Assembly: GCA_000434535.1 (NCBI GenBank) | Contig: FR878731.1 | Location: 1 to 62,308 of the forward strand | Length of the DNA: 62,308 nucleotides | Reading direction: 5' to 3' | Origin: Collinsella sp. CAG:166 | GTDB lineage: Bacteria > Actinomycetota > Coriobacteriia > Coriobacteriales > Coriobacteriaceae | Shown: positions 47,925-57,345 of the stretch, piece after piece | Layout of the letters: every line of letters starts with the position of its first letter | How positions within the stretch are numbered: position 1 is the stretch's first letter | Notes under the pieces: generated by a model | Told to the model about the DNA's origin: nothing | The model's database searches: none | What the model saw: the letters and a program-made list of their open reading frames with translations, nothing else | Program-made: the position numbers and the translations under genes

Positions 47925-47957
47925 ACAAAAACGGGACGGGCAAAAGACCCGTCCCGC
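47925..47957 (-). terminator. Terminator ending the selenium operon
   Basis: Minus strand CGGGACGGG-TCTTTTG-CCCGTCCCG-TTTTTGTTT. Confidence 0.75.
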
Positions 47958-47970
47958 AAGTATATACGCT

Positions 47971-49110
47971 CTAGCAGGCTAAATCGCGCAAAGCGTCAAT
48001 CGCGGTGTCGACTTCCTCGGCCGTGTTGAAATACCCAAACGAGAAGCGAACGATACCCTGGCGCTCGGTCCCGAGCGCGCGGTGCATGAGCGGAGCGCAA
48101 TGGGCACCGGGGCGCGTCGCAATCCCCCACCCTTGCATAAGCGCGTCCGAGATCTCGGCAGAGTCGATATCGCCCACGTTGAGTGAGACGATCGCCGAGC
48201 GCACAGGCTGATCAAACGCACCGTAGAGCGCAATGCCGGGGATTTCGCGAACGCCGGCGAGGAAGCGCTCGGCAAGCGCGCGCTCATGCGCCGCAATCGC
48301 CTCGACCCCGCCCTGGGCCTCGATAAAGTCGAGACCTGCGGAAAGTCCCGCGATGCCGTGACCGTTGAGCGTGCCCGCCTCAAGGCGCGTGGGCCACTCA
48401 AGCGGCTGCAGTGCATCGAAGCTGTGCACGCCCGTGCCGCCAATGGCCCACGGAGCCACGTCAACGCCCTCCGCCACGGCCAGGCCGCCGGTGCCCTGTG
48501 GACCCATGAGCCCCTTGTGGCCGGTAAAGCACACGACGTCGAGGCCCATAGCCTGCATATCGACATACATCGCGCCGGCAGACTGCGAAGCATCGACGAT
48601 CACGAGGGCGCCGGCCGCATGCGCGATGGCAGCCACGCGCGCAACGTCAACGGCATTGCCGGTCACATTGGAGGCGTGCGTCACCACCACGGCACGCGTG
48701 CCCGGCGTGACCAACCGCTCGAGCTCGTCGTAGTCGAGCGCGCCGTTCGCGTCGCAGCCCGCATGCTCAACGGTCACACCCCGCTCAGCCGCAAGACGAT
48801 TAAGCGGACGCAGCACTGAGTTGTGCTCAAGCACCGTCGTGACCACGCGGTCGCCGGGACGCACCACGCCGTTGATGGCGGTGTTGAGCGCCGCCGTCGA
48901 GTTAGGTGCAAAGCACACATGGTCGGCGCGCGGGCATCCCAGCAGGCGCGCAAGCTTGGCGCGGCAACCATGAATCGTACGCGCGGCATCGAGCGCACCC
49001 GAGGTGGCACCGCGCCCGGCATTGCCGAGCGAGCACATCGCCTGCGTCACGGCATCGATGACCGTCTGCGGCTTGCGCATGGTCGTCGCCGCGTTATCCA
49101 GGTAGATCAT
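47971..49110 (-). CDS. Class V PLP enzyme, cysteine desulfurase/selenocysteine lyase family (group II-like)
   Basis: IYLDNAATT, EHNSV, DASQ, TGHKGL, RPGAHCA. Confidence 0.88.
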   Translation of the reverse strand: MIYLDNAATTMRKPQTVIDAVTQAMCSLGNAGRGATSGALDAARTIHGCRAKLARLLGCPRADHVCFAPNSTAALNTAINGVVRPGDRVVTTVLEHNSVLRPLNRLAAERGVTVEHAGCDANGALDYDELERLVTPGTRAVVVTHASNVTGNAVDVARVAAIAHAAGALVIVDASQSAGAMYVDMQAMGLDVVCFTGHKGLMGPQGTGGLAVAEGVDVAPWAIGGTGVHSFDALQPLEWPTRLEAGTLNGHGIAGLSAGLDFIEAQGGVEAIAAHERALAERFLAGVREIPGIALYGAFDQPVRSAIVSLNVGDIDSAEISDALMQGWGIATRPGAHCAPLMHRALGTERQGIVRFSFGYFNTAEEVDTAIDALRDLAC

Positions 49111-49358
49111 CGCACGACCTCCCACATATCAATCACGGTATAGCCCTCTGTGGGAACGCCCGCCGCGGCGAGTTCGCCGCGCAGCAGCTCCTCATCGGCA
49201 GGCAACGCCTTCCACGCCAAACCGCAGCCGGCAGCGACCTCCCCGGGCACGGGTATCGTTCGCCCGGGAAGGCCGCGCTCGATACACAGGGACTCGCAGC
49301 CCATGGCGGCCGCCGTGGTGGGAAACGTGATGACAAGCGCCGGGCGCTTCTCCCTCAT
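49107..49358 (-). CDS. DUF3343 putative Se/S carrier protein
   Basis: ITFPTTAAAM...GRTIPVPGEVAAGCGLAW. Confidence 0.78.
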   Translation of the reverse strand: MREKRPALVITFPTTAAAMGCESLCIERGLPGRTIPVPGEVAAGCGLAWKALPADEELLRGELAAAGVPTEGYTVIDMWEVVR

Positions 49359-49377
49359 GGCAACTCCAACCAATACG

Positions 49378-50004
49378 CTACGGGCGCACGACGCGCACGG
49401 CCTGCTCCATCTTCTCCACGATCACGTACATGTTGGTGACCTCGCCCACCGCAAGCTGGTCTTTAATGCCATAGTGGTCGAGGCAGGTGCCGCAGGTGAG
49501 AATCTCGACACCCTGCTCCGCCAGGCCCTTCAGGTCGTCGAGCACCGGAGACCCCTCGACGGTGAGCTTGGCGCCGCCGTTGTAGAACAGCATGGTCGCG
49601 GGCAGTTCCTCCTGCTGCGTCACGGCAAAGATAAACGCCTTCATGAGCTTGTGGCCCAGCTCGTCGTCGCCACGGCCCATGCAATCGGTGTAGACGGAAA
49701 TGACGAGTTTGCCCTTGCCGGCGCTGGCGTCGCAGAAGGCAGCGCCATCCTGCTCAGGATCGGCCACGGCAACGGCGCCAGAGGTCGCCACGGTCACGTG
49801 CCACTCGGCGTCAGAAACCTTCTCTACCGAGGCCGTGCAGCCCTTCTCCTGCGCCATCTTGGAGATGTTCTTGACGGCAGTCTCGTTATCGACCGAGGTC
49901 ACCACGGCACCCTCGCCATCGAGCCGCTTCAGGGCTTTGAGCGTCTTGACGACGGGCAGCGGGCAGGCATCGCCCATGGCATTGACTTCAATTTTGGTAG
50001 ACAT
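49378..50004 (-). CDS. yedF: Sulfurtransferase-like selenium metabolism protein YedF (TusA + DsrE domains)
   Basis: GDACPLPVVKT TusA motif; MGRGDDELG, FYNGG, CGTCL. Confidence 0.82.
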   Translation of the reverse strand: MSTKIEVNAMGDACPLPVVKTLKALKRLDGEGAVVTSVDNETAVKNISKMAQEKGCTASVEKVSDAEWHVTVATSGAVAVADPEQDGAAFCDASAGKGKLVISVYTDCMGRGDDELGHKLMKAFIFAVTQQEELPATMLFYNGGAKLTVEGSPVLDDLKGLAEQGVEILTCGTCLDHYGIKDQLAVGEVTNMYVIVEKMEQAVRVVRP

Positions 50005-50064
50005 AGTTTTTCCTTTCGAAAGAACCGTTCTAGAGAACGGTAAACAGTTACATAAACGTGCGGG

Positions 50065-51114
50065 CTAGCGAACAACGTGGACGGCAGGACCGCCTGGCAC
50101 CGGCTCGCACACGCGACCGACGACGGCGGCAATACGTCCTTCGGCATGCAGACGGCGCGCAAGCTCATCCACATCGGCAGCAGGTGCCGCGATGAGCAGG
50201 CCACCAGACGTCTGCGGATCGTACAGCGCATCCAACATGCCCGGCTCCAGGTCTTCGTCGGCAGCCACGCGCGGGCCAAAGAAGTCCTGGTTGCGGTAGG
50301 AGCCCGCGGGGATAATGCCCAGACGCGCCATGTCGAGCACCTGGTCAAAGAGTGGAACCGCCCCCGACGCAAGCTCAACCTGCACGCCCGAGCCCTCGGC
50401 CATCTCGCACGCATGCCCGATCAGACCAAAGCCCGTAATGTCAGTACAGCCGTGAAGCTCGAGTCCCTCGGCCAGACGAATCGGAGCCTCGTTGAGAGTG
50501 CGCATCGAGTCAAACATGGCTGCGGCCTCGTCCTGCTCGATAAGCTCGCCCTTAATGGCCGTGGTGATGATGCCCGAGCCGATCGCCTTGGTCAGCAGCA
50601 GAACATCGCCCACGTGTGCGCCGCTGTTGGCGAGCATGCGGTCGAGTGGCACAAAACCGCTCACGGACAGGCCGTACTTGGGCTCGTCGTCGTTGATGGT
50701 GTGGCCGCCCGCGATGGAGCAACCCGCCTCGACGCACTTGTCGGCGCCGCCCGCCAGAATCTGACCGGCGACCTCGATGCCCAGGCAGCTCGGGATGCAC
50801 AGCAAGTTCATGGCATGGCTCGGCCGCCCGCCCATGGCGTAGATGTCCGACAGCGAGTTGGCCGCGGCGATCTGGCCAAACAGGAACGGGTCGTCGACCA
50901 TCGGCGGGAAGAAGTCGATGGACTGCACGAGACCAAGGTTCTCCCCTACGCGGAAGACGCTCGCATCGTCGGAGGTATCGAACCCCACGAGCAAGTTGTC
51001 GTTATGCACATTGGGTAAATCGCCCAGGACCTGGGCGAGGGCTCCGGGGGCCAACTTAGCGGCTCAACCGCTCGCGGCCGTCATGGACGTGAGCCTCATG
51101 GTGTCCTTAGCCAT
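50065..51114 (-). CDS. selD: Selenophosphate synthetase, selenoprotein (UGA = Sec17), 349 aa
   Basis: MAKDTMRLTSMTAASG-TGA(51064-66)-AAKLAPG in frame; DDASV, DFFPP, AANSLSDIYAMGG, TDITGFGL, DPQTSGGLL. Confidence 0.95.
51020..51038 (-). promoter_or_regulatory. Candidate SECIS of selD
   Basis: TCGCCCAG-GTC-CTGGGCGA hairpin 25 nt after UGA. Confidence 0.55.
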
Positions 51115-52324
51115 ACGAACCCCCTTCCAACAAATTAACGACTTTAAGTATACGCCCCAGGCACGCTTCCCAAGAGACCGCCGACGGCTCGAACGTCGAA
51201 GGCGGAGCCGCAAGCGCCTGCGCGATAGCATCTGCCAGTGCGCGCTCAAACAACGGAAGGTCGGCCGCCACGGGCGTGTCGACATCCGTCATACGCGGCG
51301 ACGCCACCCACGTCACGGGAGCACCGGGAAGCATCGCCTCCATCCAGGGACGAACGCCGGGCAAATCGGTCGCCACAACTTTGCAGCCGCACGCGAGGGC
51401 CTCGATCGTCACGAGCGGCAAACCTTCGTAAAACGAAGGCAGCACAAAGACGTCGGAACTGCGGTAGGCACGCACGAGTTCATCGCTATCCAGGCGCCCC
51501 GCCAGCGTCACCGGCACATCCGAGGCCGCGGTCAAGCGCTCGATACGCGCGTACTCGGCATCGTCCCCGCGGCCGCCCACAAGTACCAAGCCAGATGAGC
51601 GGACGCCATCGTCAATCGGCAATGACACAGCTCGAACCAGCGACTCGACGCCCTTTTTAAAGCAAATCTTGCCCACGTACACAAGCGATCCCGGCTGCCT
51701 CGCCACGCTTGCGTCGCGGCAGAAGACGCGATGGTCGTAGCCCGTCCCAATCACGTGGATGCGATCGGCATCGACGCCGCACACCAGGCCAATCTGCTCA
51801 GCCTGCTCAGCGTGGAGCGCAAAGACGGCATCGAGCCGACGAACCGCACTTACGATGCGATCGCGCTCGAGCGCATGCGAACGCAGCTGGCGCAGGTCGG
51901 TCGAATGGCACACGGCAACAACCGGCACGCCCCGGACGCACTCGCGCGCCAATGCGGTCACAAGATACAGGTGATGGCAGAGCACCAGATCGGGCCGAAA
52001 CTCAGCCACCGCCCGATCGATTGCAGCAGCAAATGCCCGCTCAAATGCCTTGAGCATCGAAGGCGTCAGGTCACGATAGCGCGTGGAGGGATAGGGCATG
52101 ACATCGGACATACCGCAGATGGGAAACGGCAGCTCGGGCGACTCGAACGGTACGGCAAACACGGCAGCACGCCGGTCCAGCTCGCCTTGGGTATCACCCG
52201 GTGCCGCGCCGCAAAGCACGGCGGCGCGATGCCCCGTCTCGATCTGTTCGCGTACGAGCGCGGCAAGGTAGGTGCCGCTGCCGGTGCTATCTGGTTTTTG
52301 CGCCGAGATATTGAGGATGCGCAT
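51107..52324 (-). CDS. GT-B/family 4 glycosyltransferase
   Basis: MRILNISAQKPDSTGSG, YVGKICFKKG, FVLPSFYEGLPLVTIEALACG (EX7E); overlaps selD start. Confidence 0.85.
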   Translation of the reverse strand: MRILNISAQKPDSTGSGTYLAALVREQIETGHRAAVLCGAAPGDTQGELDRRAAVFAVPFESPELPFPICGMSDVMPYPSTRYRDLTPSMLKAFERAFAAAIDRAVAEFRPDLVLCHHLYLVTALARECVRGVPVVAVCHSTDLRQLRSHALERDRIVSAVRRLDAVFALHAEQAEQIGLVCGVDADRIHVIGTGYDHRVFCRDASVARQPGSLVYVGKICFKKGVESLVRAVSLPIDDGVRSSGLVLVGGRGDDAEYARIERLTAASDVPVTLAGRLDSDELVRAYRSSDVFVLPSFYEGLPLVTIEALACGCKVVATDLPGVRPWMEAMLPGAPVTWVASPRMTDVDTPVAADLPLFERALADAIAQALAAPPSTFEPSAVSWEACLGRILKVVNLLEGGSYG

Positions 52325-52338
52325 GTCGCGGTACACCC

Positions 52339-53103
52339 CTAGGCCAAGGCGGCGGCGCGGACAGCCGCGCCGATCGCTCCGGCAAAGCGAGCTTGGGGCG
52401 AGGTGGTCACCGGCGACCCCAGTAGCTCGCCCAACCGCTCCACCACGAAGGCGTTCTCGCACAGGCCACCGGTCAGGTAGTACGGGGCGCCCGCGGCCTG
52501 CCCGGCCATGGTCGCCACGCGCGATACGACACTCTCAATCACACCACGGGCGATGTTCTCGCGCGGCTCACCACGGCCGATCAGGCTGATGACCTCGCTT
52601 TCGGCAAACACCGTGCACATGCTGGAAATCTTGGTAGGCTCGCCGGTGCGGGCGAGGTCTGCCATCTGCTGCTGGGTAATGCCCAGGCGGTCGGCCATGA
52701 TCTCCAAAAAGCGCCCCGTGCCGGCGGCGCACTTGTCGTTCATGGCAAATTTGGCCACGCGGCCGCCTTTAAGCTGGATGACCTTGGTGTCCTGACCACC
52801 CACATCGATCACGGTGCCATGGTCACCAAACAGACGCACGGCACCGGTGCCGTGGCAGGTGATCTCGGTCACGACCTTGTGCGCATAGGGCACGGCAACA
52901 CGGCCGTAGCCAGTCGCGACCACGCGAACATCGTCGCCCGTCACGTCGTAGCCGGCCGCTGCCAGTGCCTCGCGCAGCCGCTCGGAAGCATCGACCGAGG
53001 AAAACCCGGTTGGCTGCACGCACGTCCACGCCACCGAACCCTCCCCGTCGACCACAGCAGCCTTAGCCGCCGTAGACCCGATATCGATCCCGATCCCTAT
53101 CAT
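52339..53103 (-). CDS. ASKHA ATPase electron-transfer activator (HgdC/BadF-type; DCCP reductase-like)
   Basis: GIDIGST, ATGYGR, TEITCH, DVGGQDTK, MNDKCAAGTG, CTVFAESE. Confidence 0.9.
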   Translation of the reverse strand: MIGIGIDIGSTAAKAAVVDGEGSVAWTCVQPTGFSSVDASERLREALAAAGYDVTGDDVRVVATGYGRVAVPYAHKVVTEITCHGTGAVRLFGDHGTVIDVGGQDTKVIQLKGGRVAKFAMNDKCAAGTGRFLEIMADRLGITQQQMADLARTGEPTKISSMCTVFAESEVISLIGRGEPRENIARGVIESVVSRVATMAGQAAGAPYYLTGGLCENAFVVERLGELLGSPVTTSPQARFAGAIGAAVRAAALA

Positions 53104-53155
53104 GGCTCTCTCCCAATCTAAACATCAAAGGTAGCGGCGCGTTCAGGCGCCTTAG

Positions 53156-53265
53156 CTCTAGGTTTCTCAGGTGCCGGAGATTGCCCCGAAAGAGGAGCGC
53201 AGCGTACTTTGGGTACGCAAGCGACGGTTTGAGGGGCAAGATCCGGTGCCTGAGGAAGCTAGAGG
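53156..53265. repeat. Palindromic element family D, copy 1
   Basis: CTCTAGGTTTCTCAGGTGCCGGA...GAGGAGCGCAGCGTACTTTGGGTACG...TCCGGTGCCTGAGGAAGCTAGAG. Confidence 0.7.
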
Positions 53266-54422
53266 GTTTCGATGAAGGCGGCGATGCGCGTCTCGATCTG
53301 GCCCATGTCGCCGTTGCTGTAGTCGGTCTCGATCTTCATGTACGGAACACCCGCACCCTCGACGGCCTCCTGCATGCGCGCGCTCTCAACGTTGAAGGTG
53401 TGGCAGGCCTGCAGCACGCTCTCCACTACGCCATCGACGTGATACTTCTCGCACATGACCAGCGTGTTTTCCATACGACCGTCGTTGGGCGTCATGACCG
53501 AGCAGTTAATGTCCAGGTAGCGGTCGGCGATGGCGCGCAGGATGTCGGGAGCCTCCGGGTCGATCATCATGGCCGCCGTGCGCTCGCCCGAGCAGTCGTC
53601 CATGCACACGACCACACCGCCGTTGGACTCGATGGTGCGACCGATCTTGTTGATTACACCGCCCACCGGGCAGCCGGTGATCAGAATGCGCTTGGCATCC
53701 GCCGCAACCGGGCGCTCGCCCGCGTCGTAGGCCTCGCGCAGCTTGGCAACCTTTTGCTCCAGCTGCTGCGTATAGGCCTCGATATCAAAGCTAAACGTAC
53801 CGGCGAACATGGTGCTCATCAGGTCGACGCCGCTCATGGCCGCCGGTTGGTTAGCCTGCAGCGCAAACATCTCGAGCTGGGCGGCACGCAGGCGGTTGCG
53901 ACGACGAACGGCAGCGCGCAGGTCGTCATCGGTAATCGTGATGCCGTAGAAGTTCTCGAGCTCCTCCTTGAGCAGGCGGCACTCCTCGTACCAGCCTTCA
54001 CGCTCGTAGGCGCGATCGCGACCCTGCGGCAGGTGCAGAATGTGCGTGCGCTTGAGCTCGTTGAGTAACTCGTACATCTTCTTCTTGCCGTCGCAGGTGG
54101 TCTCGCCGATGATCATGTCGCTAAAGTACGTAAACGGGCACTTTTGCGAGTAGGCAAAGCCGTACGTCGACTTGATGAGCGGGCAGAGGTTTGCCGGCAG
54201 CACCTTCTCGGCCTCGGGAATCACCTCGTCGGATGTGCCGCACAAGGCCACACTTGCAGCGCCCGCGGCATCGATAATCTCGAGCGGCGTGTAGCTGCAC
54301 AGAAAACCGATCAGGCGATTACCGGCCTGCTTGTAATCCTTGACGCGAATAAACGACGCCTTGCGCTGCTCGTTGAACTCCTCAAACGTGGACGGCAACG
54401 GCTGCTCAATATATTCCGACAT
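53259..54422 (-). CDS. 2-hydroxyacyl-CoA dehydratase family / double-cubane cluster protein (paralog 2)
   Basis: [53 protein letters not shown]. Confidence 0.82.
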
Positions 54423-54459
54423 ATAACTCCTTAACAAACCTTTTAACCAACCAAGGAAA

Positions 54460-54546
54460 CGGCTTTCCCAGGTGCCCGAGGTTGCCGTGAAAGAGAAGCG
54501 CCGCGTACTTTGTTGAACGGCAAGATCGGGTGCCTGGGGAAGCCGC
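54460..54546. repeat. Palindromic element family D, copy 2
   Basis: CGGCTTTCCCAGGTGCCCGA...GAGAAGCGCCGCGTACTTTG...TCGGGTGCCTGGGGAAGCCG. Confidence 0.7.
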
Positions 54547-54560
54547 CGGGACGGATACCC

Positions 54561-55844
54561 CTAAATGGTTTCTAAGAACGCCTCAATGCGCGTCTGCAGC
54601 TGGCCTGCGTCCTCGCCGGCGTAGTCGGTGGTGATATGCATAAACGGGATGCCCGCCTCCTCAGCGGCCTTCTCGACCTGGAAGGACTCCATCTCATAGA
54701 GCGTGCAGAACTGCAGGGCCACGTCGACGATGCCATCGGCATGCAGGTCCTTGGCCATCTGGACAATGTCCTTCATACGCTGGTCGTTGGGCGTAAAGAC
54801 GGCGCAGTTGATCTTGAAGTAGCGCTCGGCGATGTCGTCGAGCATCTCGTCGACCGTCTCGCCGGACTCGTCGACCAGGTCCTTGTAGTAGCGCGAGCCC
54901 GTGCAGGACTCCTCGCCGACCACAACGCCGCCGGCCTTCTCGATGAGGTTGAACAGCTTCCAGTTGGGCACGGCCATGGGCGTGCCGGTGTACAGGATGC
55001 GCTTGGTCCCCTTGGGCGCCACGCCCTCGCCGGCCTCGACACGCTGCTCGCACTCAGCCGCCATATCGTTGATGGCTCCGGTCAGACGCGGCGTGTCGTC
55101 CATAAAGGCGGCCTGAACGGTCAGCAGGCTGTCGAGACCGCTGATGGGCGCAGGGTCGGCAGCGCGGGTCGCAGCGAGGCGCTGCAGGGCGCGGCGCTTC
55201 TCATTGACGGCGTGGATGGCAGCCTTCAGACGCTCGGGCGTAATCTTGACGCCGCACTCGTCCTCGATCTTGGCGGCGAGCTTCTTGACCTCGGCCTTCC
55301 AGGTCACGAGCGTCGACTCGTCGTGCACGTTGGGAATATCCATGACGTACATGTTCTTTTGCGTGGCAAAGAACTCGTAGGCTTTCTTCTTGCCATCGCA
55401 GGTGTTCTCGCCTACCACCAGGTCACTCGACTCAATGTAGGGGCAGACCTCGCCCAGCTTAAAGCCGGCAAAGCTCTTGATAAGCGGACAGGTGTTGCGC
55501 GGCAGATGCTCCTCGACCTTATCGGTTGCCCAATCGGCACCCGAGCACAGACCCACGGGGATACCGTCGCAGGCGAGAACAATCTCCTCGGGCACGTAGA
55601 CGCAGAAGCTGCCAACAATCTTGGTGGCCTCGCCGGCCTCCTTCTTGTCGAGCATCTCCTTAATGCGGCCGCTGTGGATGTTGGTGGCGACAAAATCCAG
55701 GTAGGACGTGGACTTGGGGCGATTGTTCTGCGTCAGGAACATATCGCCGTACATCTGGCCCACGGCACCCAGCAGCATGTCGTGGTCGGCAAGATTCATG
55801 CCGAGGCTCTCCCACATCGGATGGAAATCGAATTCTTCAGCCAT
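54561..55844 (-). CDS. Double-cubane cluster-containing reductase-like protein (paralog 1)
   Basis: SFCVYVPEE, GLCSG, NTCPLIKS, VCPY, ENTCDGKKK, EESCTG, INCAVFTPN, QFCT. Confidence 0.82.
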   Translation of the reverse strand: MAEEFDFHPMWESLGMNLADHDMLLGAVGQMYGDMFLTQNNRPKSTSYLDFVATNIHSGRIKEMLDKKEAGEATKIVGSFCVYVPEEIVLACDGIPVGLCSGADWATDKVEEHLPRNTCPLIKSFAGFKLGEVCPYIESSDLVVGENTCDGKKKAYEFFATQKNMYVMDIPNVHDESTLVTWKAEVKKLAAKIEDECGVKITPERLKAAIHAVNEKRRALQRLAATRAADPAPISGLDSLLTVQAAFMDDTPRLTGAINDMAAECEQRVEAGEGVAPKGTKRILYTGTPMAVPNWKLFNLIEKAGGVVVGEESCTGSRYYKDLVDESGETVDEMLDDIAERYFKINCAVFTPNDQRMKDIVQMAKDLHADGIVDVALQFCTLYEMESFQVEKAAEEAGIPFMHITTDYAGEDAGQLQTRIEAFLETI

Positions 55845-56072: not shown

Positions 56073-56274
56073 GTGCGCACCCTCCTTTACAAGATAAGAT
56101 CAACTATATCAACGGTCATCGACCATGCGAACACCGTTGACATTCGTACGACAGCATCGTGTGCCGTCGTTTAATAAACAATTCTCTTGATTGATAAGAG
56201 TTTGTCATCTCTCATTCGGCGAACGGCAGAAACAAAGCCGCCGAGGCTTATATCCCCGACGGCATTACCCGGCG

Positions 56275-57345
56275 CTATCGACAAACCAAATGGATCCTGC
56301 TGGCATCGAAGTGCATGCGCAGCGTCTCGCCTGCTTGCGGTAGCTCGTCGACAGGCACGCCCACCTTGTTGACCTTCCACTGCAGACGCGTGGGCGCATC
56401 AGCGCGCGGCACGTCCAGCAGCACCAGCCGCTCAAAGCGCGAATCGCTCACACGGGCCACATGCAAATCGTAGCTGTTACGGCCCCGCTCAACGCGATTA
56501 TCAATATGGAAATAGCTTGCGCGAACGCCCAGGTACGCCACATTATCGGGGACCTCGCGGCCCACGTTAAAGGTCATGCCCCAGTCGAGGGCCTCAACTT
56601 CTTCGTCGCCGATTTTGCGCGCACGGCTTGTGTTCTTGCAGCCAGTTAGGCGCAGCGCCGCCAGCGTCTGCGGACGGCGGACCACGTCCTCGACGGAGCC
56701 GAGCTCCTCAACATGCCCGTCGTGCATCACACAGATGCGCTGGCACAGGCGGCATGCCTCGTCGATGTCGTGGCTCACGTAGAGCACGGTGCGGTTGCAG
56801 ACATCGAACAGGTCGAGCATATTCTGCTCGAGGGCGCTCTTGAGGTACGCATCGAGCGCACTCATGGGCTCGTCGAACATAAAAATGCCCGGATGCGCCG
56901 CCACCATGCGGGCAAGCGCCACGCGTTGTTGCTGGCCGCCCGAGAGCCGCGCGGGATAACGGTCGGCGAAATCGGCCAGGCCAAAGATGCCCAGATAGCG
57001 CTCGGCCAGCCTTTTTCGCGCCGCGGCGTCGCCCGCGTCCTTTACACCGGCACATACGTTATCGGCCACCGTCATGCTGGGAAACAGCTGATAGTTTTGG
57101 AACAGCAGGGCGCATTTTCGCTCCTGGGGCGACAGGTTGATGCCCGCCGCCGAGTCAAAAAAGGTCACGCCGTTGACGACGATCTTGCCCTCGTCGGGCG
57201 TCTCCACGCCGGCGATGCAGCGCAGCGTACAGCTCTTGCCGCAACCCGAGGCACCGAGCAGCGCCACACGATCCTCGCCGGCCTCAAGCTGCATGTCGAG
57301 CATAAACCCGGGATAGCGCTTTTTGATATCCAGAACGAGCGACAT
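56275..57345 (-). CDS. modC: Molybdate ABC transporter ATPase
   Basis: GASGCGKS, LSGGQQQRVALAR, DEPMSALD, VSHD. Confidence 0.88.
   Translation of the reverse strand: MSLVLDIKKRYPGFMLDMQLEAGEDRVALLGASGCGKSCTLRCIAGVETPDEGKIVVNGVTFFDSAAGINLSPQERKCALLFQNYQLFPSMTVADNVCAGVKDAGDAAARKRLAERYLGIFGLADFADRYPARLSGGQQQRVALARMVAAHPGIFMFDEPMSALDAYLKSALEQNMLDLFDVCNRTVLYVSHDIDEACRLCQRICVMHDGHVEELGSVEDVVRRPQTLAALRLTGCKNTSRARKIGDEEVEALDWGMTFNVGREVPDNVAYLGVRASYFHIDNRVERGRNSYDLHVARVSDSRFERLVLLDVPRADAPTRLQWKVNKVGVPVDELPQAGETLRMHFDASRIHLVCR

Follow-up and report, generated by a model that had tools for sequence, protein, structure and literature searches.

Double-cubane cluster proteins (DCCPs) carry out the ATP-driven reduction of small refractory molecules, and their physiological substrate is unknown; the closest described example is the DCCP of Carboxydothermus hydrogenoformans with its reductase, DCCP-R (6ENO, 7YYL; Jeoung and Dobbek). 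Our study reports on a locus of eight co-oriented genes in Collinsella sp. CAG:166, contained in a 62,308-nucleotide stretch of contig FR878731.1 (assembly GCA_000434535.1; hereafter the window), where two DCCPs and an activase of the ASKHA type are encoded together with a GT4-family glycosyltransferase (GT4), a selenocysteine (Sec)-containing selenophosphate synthetase (SelD), YedF, a DUF3343 protein and a cysteine desulfurase/Sec-lyase-like enzyme. The locus resembles the C. hydrogenoformans system in its match to NF040772, its seven cysteines and its adjacent ASKHA activase; it differs in that a long and a short paralogue occur together inside a selD operon.

DCCPs have been met in selenium contexts before. 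The available part of Haft 2022 (10.1101/2022.07.06.499078), the source of the NF040772 model, places 955 of 970 DCCPs in SelD-containing assemblies and offers either the processing of a selenium compound or a selenium-bridged cluster as the explanation, while the Mlp preprint of 2023 (PMC10418091), in the portion accessible, describes DCCP as 'provisionally linked to selenium metabolism' and draws DCCP/DCCPR in some type I mlp clusters. In these portions of the two sources DCCPs appear in organometallic and Sec-containing ABC transport loci and in clusters for the recycling of methyl-selenides, whereas the window DCCPs, from the order Coriobacteriales, lie inside a selenophosphate and carrier operon. 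The four-gene core of the window is common to the selD-yedF-DUF3343-Sec-lyase neighbourhoods of Lin et al. 2015 (PMC5322559), whose STRING table for Slackia heliotrinireducens gives YedE, YedF and DUF3343 an activase, a glycosyltransferase and two '2-hydroxyglutaryl-CoA dehydratase subunits' as partners. Those rows are left undiscussed in the accessible part of that text; here we recognize the reductases as DCCPs and count their linkage over three families. The association of DCCPs with selenium is thus already published, in what is available of these three sources, and the word 'undescribed', which an earlier annotation of the same DNA (the original prediction) had used for it, has to be withdrawn.

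For the glycosyltransferase, the nearest described system is the SenB-SenC selenoneine module (10.1101/2022.04.13.486033; PMC10891094); according to the available part of the first of these papers (Kayrouz et al.), SenB was found by mining genes that overlap selD. The window GT4 is not of the SenB family and has no senA or egtB-like partner, and the window selD, in contrast to that of the selenoneine module, serves selenocysteine synthesis. Our literature search found nothing on this GT4, on its link to selenium genes or on a demonstrated DCCP function, although the selD-overlap list of Kayrouz et al. might include a GT4.

We consider it highly probable that the operon is functionally tied to selenium. 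On the evidence of gene neighbourhoods, the linkage of DCCPs to selenium genes is not a product of chance, as it is kept across three families in rearranged orders. We propose that the locus is a selenium-assimilation operon that would consist of three modules: a core, a reductase and the GT4.

Double-cubane proteins among selenium genes

DCCP1 and DCCP2 are 38% identical to each other and are the only NF040772 proteins encoded in the source genome (G000; 1.9 Mb in 184 contigs, 93.6% complete). DCCP1 can be aligned along its entire length with the solved DCCP chains 6ENO/7YYL (E 1e-126), and both proteins have all positions of the seven-cysteine DCCP motif, as C81-X18-C100-X18-C119-X29-C149-X164-C314-X32-C347-X32-C380 in DCCP1 and, in 392-residue numbering, C47-X18-C66-X18-C85-X29-C115-X162-C278-X33-C312-X32-C345 in DCCP2. 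Compared with the published motif, CX19CX18-19CX29CX166-170CX32-34CX32C, the first spacer is X18 instead of X19 and the fourth X164 or X162 instead of X166-170. Six of the motif cysteines show no variation among 18 homologues of DCCP1, and the conservation of the seventh, C149, is 90% or higher; 14 homologues of DCCP2 share ten invariant cysteines, the motif positions included. The open reading frame (ORF) of DCCP2 opens at a TTG at 54437 (392 aa; 53259-54437), but translation probably begins at the ATG at 54422, with AAGGAG in front of it. A review distinguishes long, closed-channel DCCPs from short, YjiM-like ones, and the window encodes one of each length.

Pfam detects only HGD-D in the two proteins and an activase adjoins them, as would be expected of the subunits of an ordinary 2-hydroxyacyl-CoA dehydratase. 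The HadC model NF052456, for the beta subunit of 2-hydroxyisocaproyl-CoA dehydratase, gives 104.3 and 91 bits against a cut-off of 700, and the HadB model, NF052455, 19.3 bits against 750, while the NF040772 scores exceed 490; the seven-cysteine pattern is present in both proteins, DCCP1 aligns with a solved DCCP from end to end, and no CoA-transferase is found among the annotated neighbours. We regard a dehydratase as extremely improbable, in agreement with the original prediction, against which such dehydratases would have counted.

To examine the linkage to selenium we sampled 201 genomes from the class, each with a completeness of 90% or more; G000 is included in the counts for the order. 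DCCPs are encoded in 102 of the 201 genomes and SelD in 167; all 102 DCCP genomes have SelD, and no DCCP occurs in the 34 genomes that lack SelD. In the order, SelD has a patchy distribution (68/98) and is nevertheless present in 52 of 52 DCCP genomes. Using the window proteins as queries, we also compared about 20 kb around the DCCPs of 65 non-Collinsella and 7 Collinsella genomes, plus G049 (locus L011). The activase adjoins a DCCP in nearly all of the 76 DCCP loci compared. In f3 and f6, the two other families of the order, 15 of 16 DCCP genomes carry a selenium gene (yedF, desulfurase, DUF3343 or selD) within ~10 kb, the exception being G200 with its selenium locus ~25 kb away, and in 14 of the 16 selD, selA/selB or YqeB lies inside or beside the cluster. 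The order in f3 is DCCP-DUF3343b-YedF-desulfurase-DUF3343-activase-(DCCP2), with selD alongside and selA/selB next door (L108, L144, L155, L161, L162, L011), which places the selenium carriers between a DCCP and its own activase; in f6 it is DCCP2-activase-(SelD)-YedF-DUF3343-desulfurase-YqeB (L141, L142, L157, L158, L160). The original prediction had looked to gene neighbourhoods for conserved linkage, and across the three families, with their rearranged orders, this is what they hold. The second DUF3343 paralogue that directly follows DCCP in f3 was confirmed by Pfam in 3 of 3 cases tested, and has an extra C-terminal cysteine in an 'RDxFC' or 'RDRYC' context (L108:8090-8371, L144:9094-9345, L011:7292-7645).

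A draw of 36 other Collinsella species, taken besides the source genome, contained DCCP in 31, SelD in 33 and GT4 in 6. The common Collinsella layout is DCCP1-DCCP2-activase-selD with no GT4 (for example G021, L169), and some species (L164-L166) have DCCP2-activase only, at a distance of 2.7-4.4 kb from the carrier genes and a non-Sec SelD. In two of these (L164:3899-8570, L165:11443-13891) DCCP2-activase is separated from yedF by an MFS transporter and a channel of the formate/nitrite family, joined in L164 by a Mutator-type transposase; one might speculate that hydroselenide or some other small anion passes through the channel. A five-gene ABC importer of the Opp/Dpp type, with two permeases, two ATPases and a binding protein of the SBP_bac_5 family, stands between DCCP1 and DCCP2 in 20 of 80 Collinsella loci (for example L170:7141-12562, L003, L004), and this arrangement may hint at an imported substrate.

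We propose that DCCP1, DCCP2 and the activase would form an ATP-driven, very low-potential reductase acting upstream of SelD, which would convert poorly available selenium into selenide for SelD. Its substrate could be Se(0), or the perselenide or selenotrisulfide selenium held on YedF, DUF3343 or the desulfurase. The Se(0)/HSe- couple is very negative, though our literature search gave no figure for it. A supply role is favoured because DCCP tracks SelD regardless of the selenium consumer and sits among carrier and desulfurase genes: the SelA-less DCCP genomes of the order all have YqeB (9/9), and tracking of SelD whether the Sec or the YqeB trait is present fits a step upstream of SelD. A complex prediction for DCCP2, DCCP1 and DUF3343 (score 0.00, mark 0.32) counts neither way.

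Several points weigh against this proposal. SelD is present in 99 of 103 genomes of the other orders of the class, so near to universal that co-occurrence there is uninformative, and in those orders the DCCP-activase pair mostly stands alone (42/50) and selD falls within the examined stretch in only 1 of 50 DCCP genomes. DCCP is also far from selD in G043, G039, G052 (41 kb), G034 (18 kb) and G200 (~25 kb), and the counts overstate the support they give because related genomes are not independent. A thiol-level reductant may suffice to free selenide from perselenide; that an ATP-driven reductase is needed is our own argument. Finally, the nesting of DCCPs in SelD-bearing genomes is equally expected if the DCCPs consume selenium instead of supplying it.

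On such a consumer role, SelD, YedF, DUF3343 and the desulfurase would in part serve the maturation of an analogue of the [8Fe-9S] cluster with a selenium bridge, the idea also raised in the accessible part of Haft 2022, with its similar counts. The presence of SelD in all 102 DCCP genomes is in keeping with it, and clustering with selD is common among selenium consumers, selA/selB and YqeB being examples in these loci. Against it, the bridging atom described for the solved DCCP structure is a sulfur, and the carrier genes are widespread in genomes without DCCP. A search for orphans, genomes with SelD and DCCP and no other user of SelD, found none among the 102, because 92 have SelA, nine have YqeB and G125 has a Sec-type selD; this too speaks against consumption, with the low power that follows from how common these traits are in the class. 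We think a consumer role unlikely.

The DCCPs might alternatively act on sulfur, reducing persulfides or polysulfides on TusA/DsrE carriers for, as an example, molybdenum-cofactor or iron-sulfur chemistry, so that the selenium link would reflect trafficking proteins shared by the two elements. The YedF, DUF3343 and desulfurase families do handle both, modABC, moaB and moeA lie directly upstream in Collinsella, and in other orders the DCCP-activase pair has DsrE-like neighbours: a small gene resembling DsrE or the YedF C-terminus, or a DUF3343 gene, lies beside it in 8 of 50 DCCP genomes. Sulfur trafficking is universal, however, while DCCP is missing from all 34 SelD-less genomes of the sample, and the presence of selD, selA/selB or YqeB in or beside the f3 and f6 clusters is a second point against a sulfur role, which we hold to be decidedly improbable. 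In one locus of another order (L099:9288-9914) a gene for a protein like the catalytic subunit of ferredoxin:thioredoxin reductase (PF02943) directly follows the activase and precedes a DsrE-like gene; selD lies 2.5 kb upstream of it.

An unrelated small molecule could also be the substrate, with clustering due to shared regulation or to an anaerobic lifestyle and not to shared chemistry. The solitary pairs of the other orders agree with this, and the importer between DCCP1 and DCCP2 could mean that a non-selenium substrate is brought into the cell. Co-regulation alone is hard to accept, since the f3 carriers are interleaved between DCCP and activase and the gene set survives at least three gene orders; DCCPs also occur in other selenium contexts, as the available parts of Haft 2022 and the Mlp preprint describe. 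We rate an unrelated substrate as quite unlikely and retain selenide supply as our preferred role for the DCCPs.

The GT4 glycosyltransferase

The homologues of the window GT4 begin with MRILNISAQ, and in 15 sequences E299 and E307 are invariant, a pair which we take to be the 'EX7E' motif of the GT4 family. The predicted model has a GT-B fold (pLDDT 91.1), and among its 50 best Foldseek matches the nearest solved structures are sucrose-phosphate synthases (SPS), ManT, GlgM, MshA and BshA, along with tetrahydrobiopterin glucosyltransferases; GlgM, SPS, MshA and BshA use phosphorylated or anionic small acceptors.

At a threshold of E <= 1e-50, orthologues of the GT4 were found in 23 of the 201 genomes, all of them in the order and none among the 103 genomes elsewhere in the class. 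They are distributed over family f1 (12/51, all in Collinsella, where they make up 12 of 45 genomes including G000), f3 (8/25) and f6 (3/20). Every intact copy is in a SelD-bearing genome (22/22), and 21 of those genomes also have SelA. The GT4 of the SelD-less genome G170 covers residues 1-306 with an in-frame TGA; this remnant (L176:9134-10362) is split into two frames, neither SelD nor DCCP was found in the genome, and it looks like gene decay following the loss of the selenium trait. Three genomes (G041, G073, G093) have GT4 without DCCP.

The best 80 GT4 loci from named genomes are all near-identical to that of the window, and 73 of them bear the label Collinsella. One is that of Collinsella aerofaciens ATCC 25986 (L080), which has the full layout of our locus, and the source organism itself belongs to the aerofaciens group; the order activase-GT4-selD is found in all 80 as far as the contigs reach, and the overlap of GT4 with selD is kept in 74 of 77 Collinsella loci. 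Outside Collinsella, 10 of 14 GT4 loci lie amid selenium genes, in varying positions. The contexts include selD-GT4-selA-selB-yedF-desulfurase (L173), selD-GT4-selA (L154), selA-selB-GT4 (L174), GT4-desulfurase-yedF (L172), desulfurase-GT4 (L121), GT4-DCCP (L162, L011) and yedF-yqeB-molybdenum cofactor genes-GT4 (L008), and the gene is divergent from selD in L171 and from selA in L175. Judged by these contexts, the GT4 is an independently acquired accessory gene with its own link to selD, selA and selB, not dependent on the DCCPs.

Two Collinsella alleles of GT4 are only 72% (L006:1369-2577, G022) and 66% (L170:14741-15958, G178) identical to that of the window while their flanking genes are 91-99% identical, which points to replacement of the allele or to rapid divergence of GT4. 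Several proteins of 602-669 aa in the databases (P0003, P0004, P0008-P0010, P0014) fuse an activase domain to GT4 at 96-99% identity; their clusters mostly have one member, and one has two. These may be artefacts of frameshift or gene calling, or rare real fusions.

We propose that the GT4 most likely transfers sugar from a nucleotide sugar to an anionic selenium acceptor, possibly selenophosphate, which may give a selenosugar, and would thus be SenB-like in its reaction without belonging to that family. Its overlap with selD and its relatives with anionic acceptors make this the most economical idea. Other results tell against it. The window GT4 scores 22.2 bits on the SenB model TIGR04348 (cut-off 300), and SenB is absent from its 50 best fold matches and 60 best profile matches. 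GT4 enzymes usually retain configuration. The product of SenB, on the other hand, is a beta-selenosugar, according to the accessible part of 10.1101/2022.04.13.486033. In addition, 4 of the 14 non-Collinsella loci are outside a selenium context, one of them (L010) adjoining a NifS-type desulfurase and the others being L007, L009 and L012. The orthologues in L009, L010 and L011 reach ~40 bits on TIGR04348.

These four loci are also in keeping with a GT4 that does not act on selenium and would instead take the first step of a low-molecular-weight thiol pathway, in the manner of MshA or BshA, glycosylate a pterin or the molybdenum cofactor, or serve the cell envelope. MshA, BshA and the tetrahydrobiopterin glucosyltransferases are among its structural relatives, and the gene comes after moaB in L008 and has molybdenum-cofactor genes in its vicinity in Collinsella. 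The repeated placement of GT4 next to selD, selA or selB in different positions argues against such functions, as does its decay in the sole SelD-less genome that carries it, and for a thiol pathway no deacetylase or ligase partner was seen nearby. A non-selenium GT4 is an alternative of some weight that we nevertheless find doubtful, and a SenB-like reaction on selenium remains our preferred proposal.

Anatomy and transcription of the locus

The eight ORFs run on the minus strand from 55844 to 47971 in the order DCCP1-DCCP2-activase-GT4-selD(Sec)-yedF-DUF3343-desulfurase (Table 1), and all family assignments in the operon exceed their curated cut-offs. Pfam and NCBIfam scores together with the coordinates bear out the identities and the common orientation given to the eight genes by the original prediction.

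Table 1. Coordinates of the genes and of the predicted signals in and around the locus
Feature	Coordinates	Strand	Evidence
DCCP1, long-form double-cubane cluster protein, 427 aa	54561..55844	-	NF040772 491 bits, cut-off 350
DCCP2, short-form double-cubane cluster protein, 387 aa	53259..54422	-	NF040772 494.9 bits, cut-off 350
ASKHA-type ATP-dependent activase, DCCP reductase-like	52339..53103	-	PF01869 195.9 bits; TIGR00241 233.5 (cut-off 125.4)
GT4-family glycosyltransferase, 404 aa	51107..52321	-	PF13439 67.4 bits, PF00534 64.4 bits
selD, selenophosphate synthetase with Sec	50065..51114	-	TIGR00476 359.9 bits, cut-off 125
yedF, TusA-like and DsrE-like	49378..50004	-	TIGR03527 213.5 bits (cut-off 110); PF01206 and PF02635
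DUF3343/Se_S_carrier small protein	49107..49373	-	PF11823 65.7 bits, cut-off 25
Class-V pyridoxal phosphate enzyme, EF2568 family, cysteine desulfurase/Sec-lyase-like	47971..49125	-	TIGR01977 410.9 bits, cut-off 377
Intergenic hairpin repeat copy B, DCCP1/DCCP2 gap	54464..54543	-	direct repeat of copy A
Intergenic hairpin repeat copy A, DCCP2/activase gap	53163..53259	-	direct repeat with copy B
Intrinsic-terminator-like hairpin closing the operon	47931..47957	-	11-bp stem, 8 GC pairs, then T-run TTTTGTTT
Terminator-like hairpin after modC, upstream boundary	56237..56263	-	sequence
Promoter-like site upstream of DCCP1	56103..56131	-	TTCGCA-17-TATAGT with TG

The in-frame TGA of selD is codon 17 (51066-51064), and its read-through gives 'SGUAAK' in the N-terminal glycine-rich loop. 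One in-frame TGA, similarly placed, is found in most relatives, and it is for this reason that we assign Sec here, and not because of a selenocysteine insertion sequence (SECIS) fold: the predicted fold of the 86 nt that begin shortly ahead of the selD TGA does not stand out (z -0.97). Cys45 of the DUF3343 protein, in 'AGCGLAW', is invariant among 16 homologues. The desulfurase was also compared with SclA selenocysteine lyase, and its 349.6 bits on NF040779 fall below the cut-off of 525.

The end of GT4 runs 8 nt into the start of selD, 17 nt separate the activase from GT4, yedF is followed by DUF3343 after 4 nt, and the DUF3343 and desulfurase ORFs overlap; downstream of the selD start, genes are spaced by 4-60 nt or overlap. 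The gaps between DCCP1 and DCCP2 (123-138 nt) and between DCCP2 and the activase (155 nt) are wide, and each contains a long stable hairpin repeat. The two copies of this repeat are ~90-nt imperfect palindromes of 86-87% identity, with predicted RNA folds of -45.4 kcal/mol (z -5.3) for copy B (54455-54550) and -52.8 kcal/mol (z -8.2) for copy A (53155-53265). Eight further matches, mostly partial, occur elsewhere in the genome, and the repeat may be a dispersed element resembling repetitive extragenic palindromes that could affect mRNA stability inside the operon. The mostly tight spacing given in the original prediction thus does not extend to either side of DCCP2, and its closing terminator, put at 47925, is present as a hairpin at 47957-47931 followed by a T-run, so that the position given was inexact.

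Transcription was followed in two raw-read RNA-seq runs and two contig sets from RNA runs, all from related strains that lack GT4 and have 115 other letters where it sits in the window. Same-strand coverage is unbroken from DCCP1 through the desulfurase, with a strand bias of ~5:1 and a depth of 40-65 on DCCP1, DCCP2 and the activase and of 70-160 on selD through the desulfurase. Reads enter the spacer between activase and selD from both sides (119 and 82 in X18, 78 and 58 in X19). The coverage is consistent with a single transcription unit, in which selD may have an additional start ahead of it, while stopping short of proof of a single transcript; as these strains have no GT4 it carries no information on the transcription of that gene. 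Co-transcription of the DCCPs with selD, as the original prediction had it, is thus supported in GT4-less relatives, and its eight-gene operon finds backing in the shared strand and the terminator, with its unity overstated in view of an accessory GT4 and an importer that divides the DCCPs in part of the Collinsella loci.

At the upstream end, RNA-seq depth in the gap between modC and DCCP1 (56103-56400) is ~50, equal to that on DCCP1 despite the terminator-like hairpin, and may reflect read-through from modABC or a long leader upstream of DCCP1. The promoter call for DCCP1 is weak evidence, as 3 promoter-like sites were observed against 2.1 in shuffled sequence. Rfam at gathering thresholds reports tRNAs and tRNA-Sec only in the window, and no riboswitch or leader; for the 541 bases upstream of DCCP1 it reports nothing up to E = 1.

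A selenium, molybdenum and formate island at 22181-43677 of the window comprises tRNA-Sec, selB, selA, a PhsA-like molybdopterin oxidoreductase, focA, hycI/hycH, formate-hydrogenlyase subunits and a Sec-type fdhF split by its own TGA; it runs on into the selD/DCCP operon and then into modABC-moaB-moeA. The source genome encodes YqeB. At its 93.6% completeness YedE (TIGR04112) was not found in it, nor was SelU (TIGR03167) found there or in four other Collinsella.

Selenium assimilation in Collinsella

The identities of the genes, the anatomy of the operon, a linkage that persists through rearrangement, the co-occurrence and the expression are direct observations, from which we infer the substrates and reactions of the DCCPs and the GT4. 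In the model that they suggest, the core module of selD, yedF, DUF3343 and the desulfurase/Sec-lyase-like enzyme would provide selenophosphate both to the Sec machinery and to a YqeB-type selenium-molybdenum cofactor route; the DCCP reductase would feed selenide into SelD from above, and the GT4 would draw on an anionic selenium compound to make a selenosugar. We offer this specific mechanism as the best explanation as a whole, tentatively and aware that it could well prove wrong. A bolder form, in which the DCCPs are the missing selenide-generating step (Se(0) or carrier perselenide to HSe-) and the GT4 is a second, independently evolved selenium-glycosyltransferase working on the same selenophosphate pool, strikes us as rather unlikely in its entirety.

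The natural substrate of the double-cubane cluster proteins is a long-standing question, which the present locus places in a cultured species of the human gut, C. aerofaciens. If the DCCPs were indeed the selenide-generating step, this would be the first physiological function for the [8Fe-9S] cluster. Natural Collinsella strains differ in the number of DCCP copies, in the presence of GT4 and in its alleles, and this variation makes the role in selenium metabolism testable. With one selenium-glycosyltransferase family known so far, the link of the GT4 to selD, selA and selB provides a new candidate for the organoselenium chemistry of the gut.

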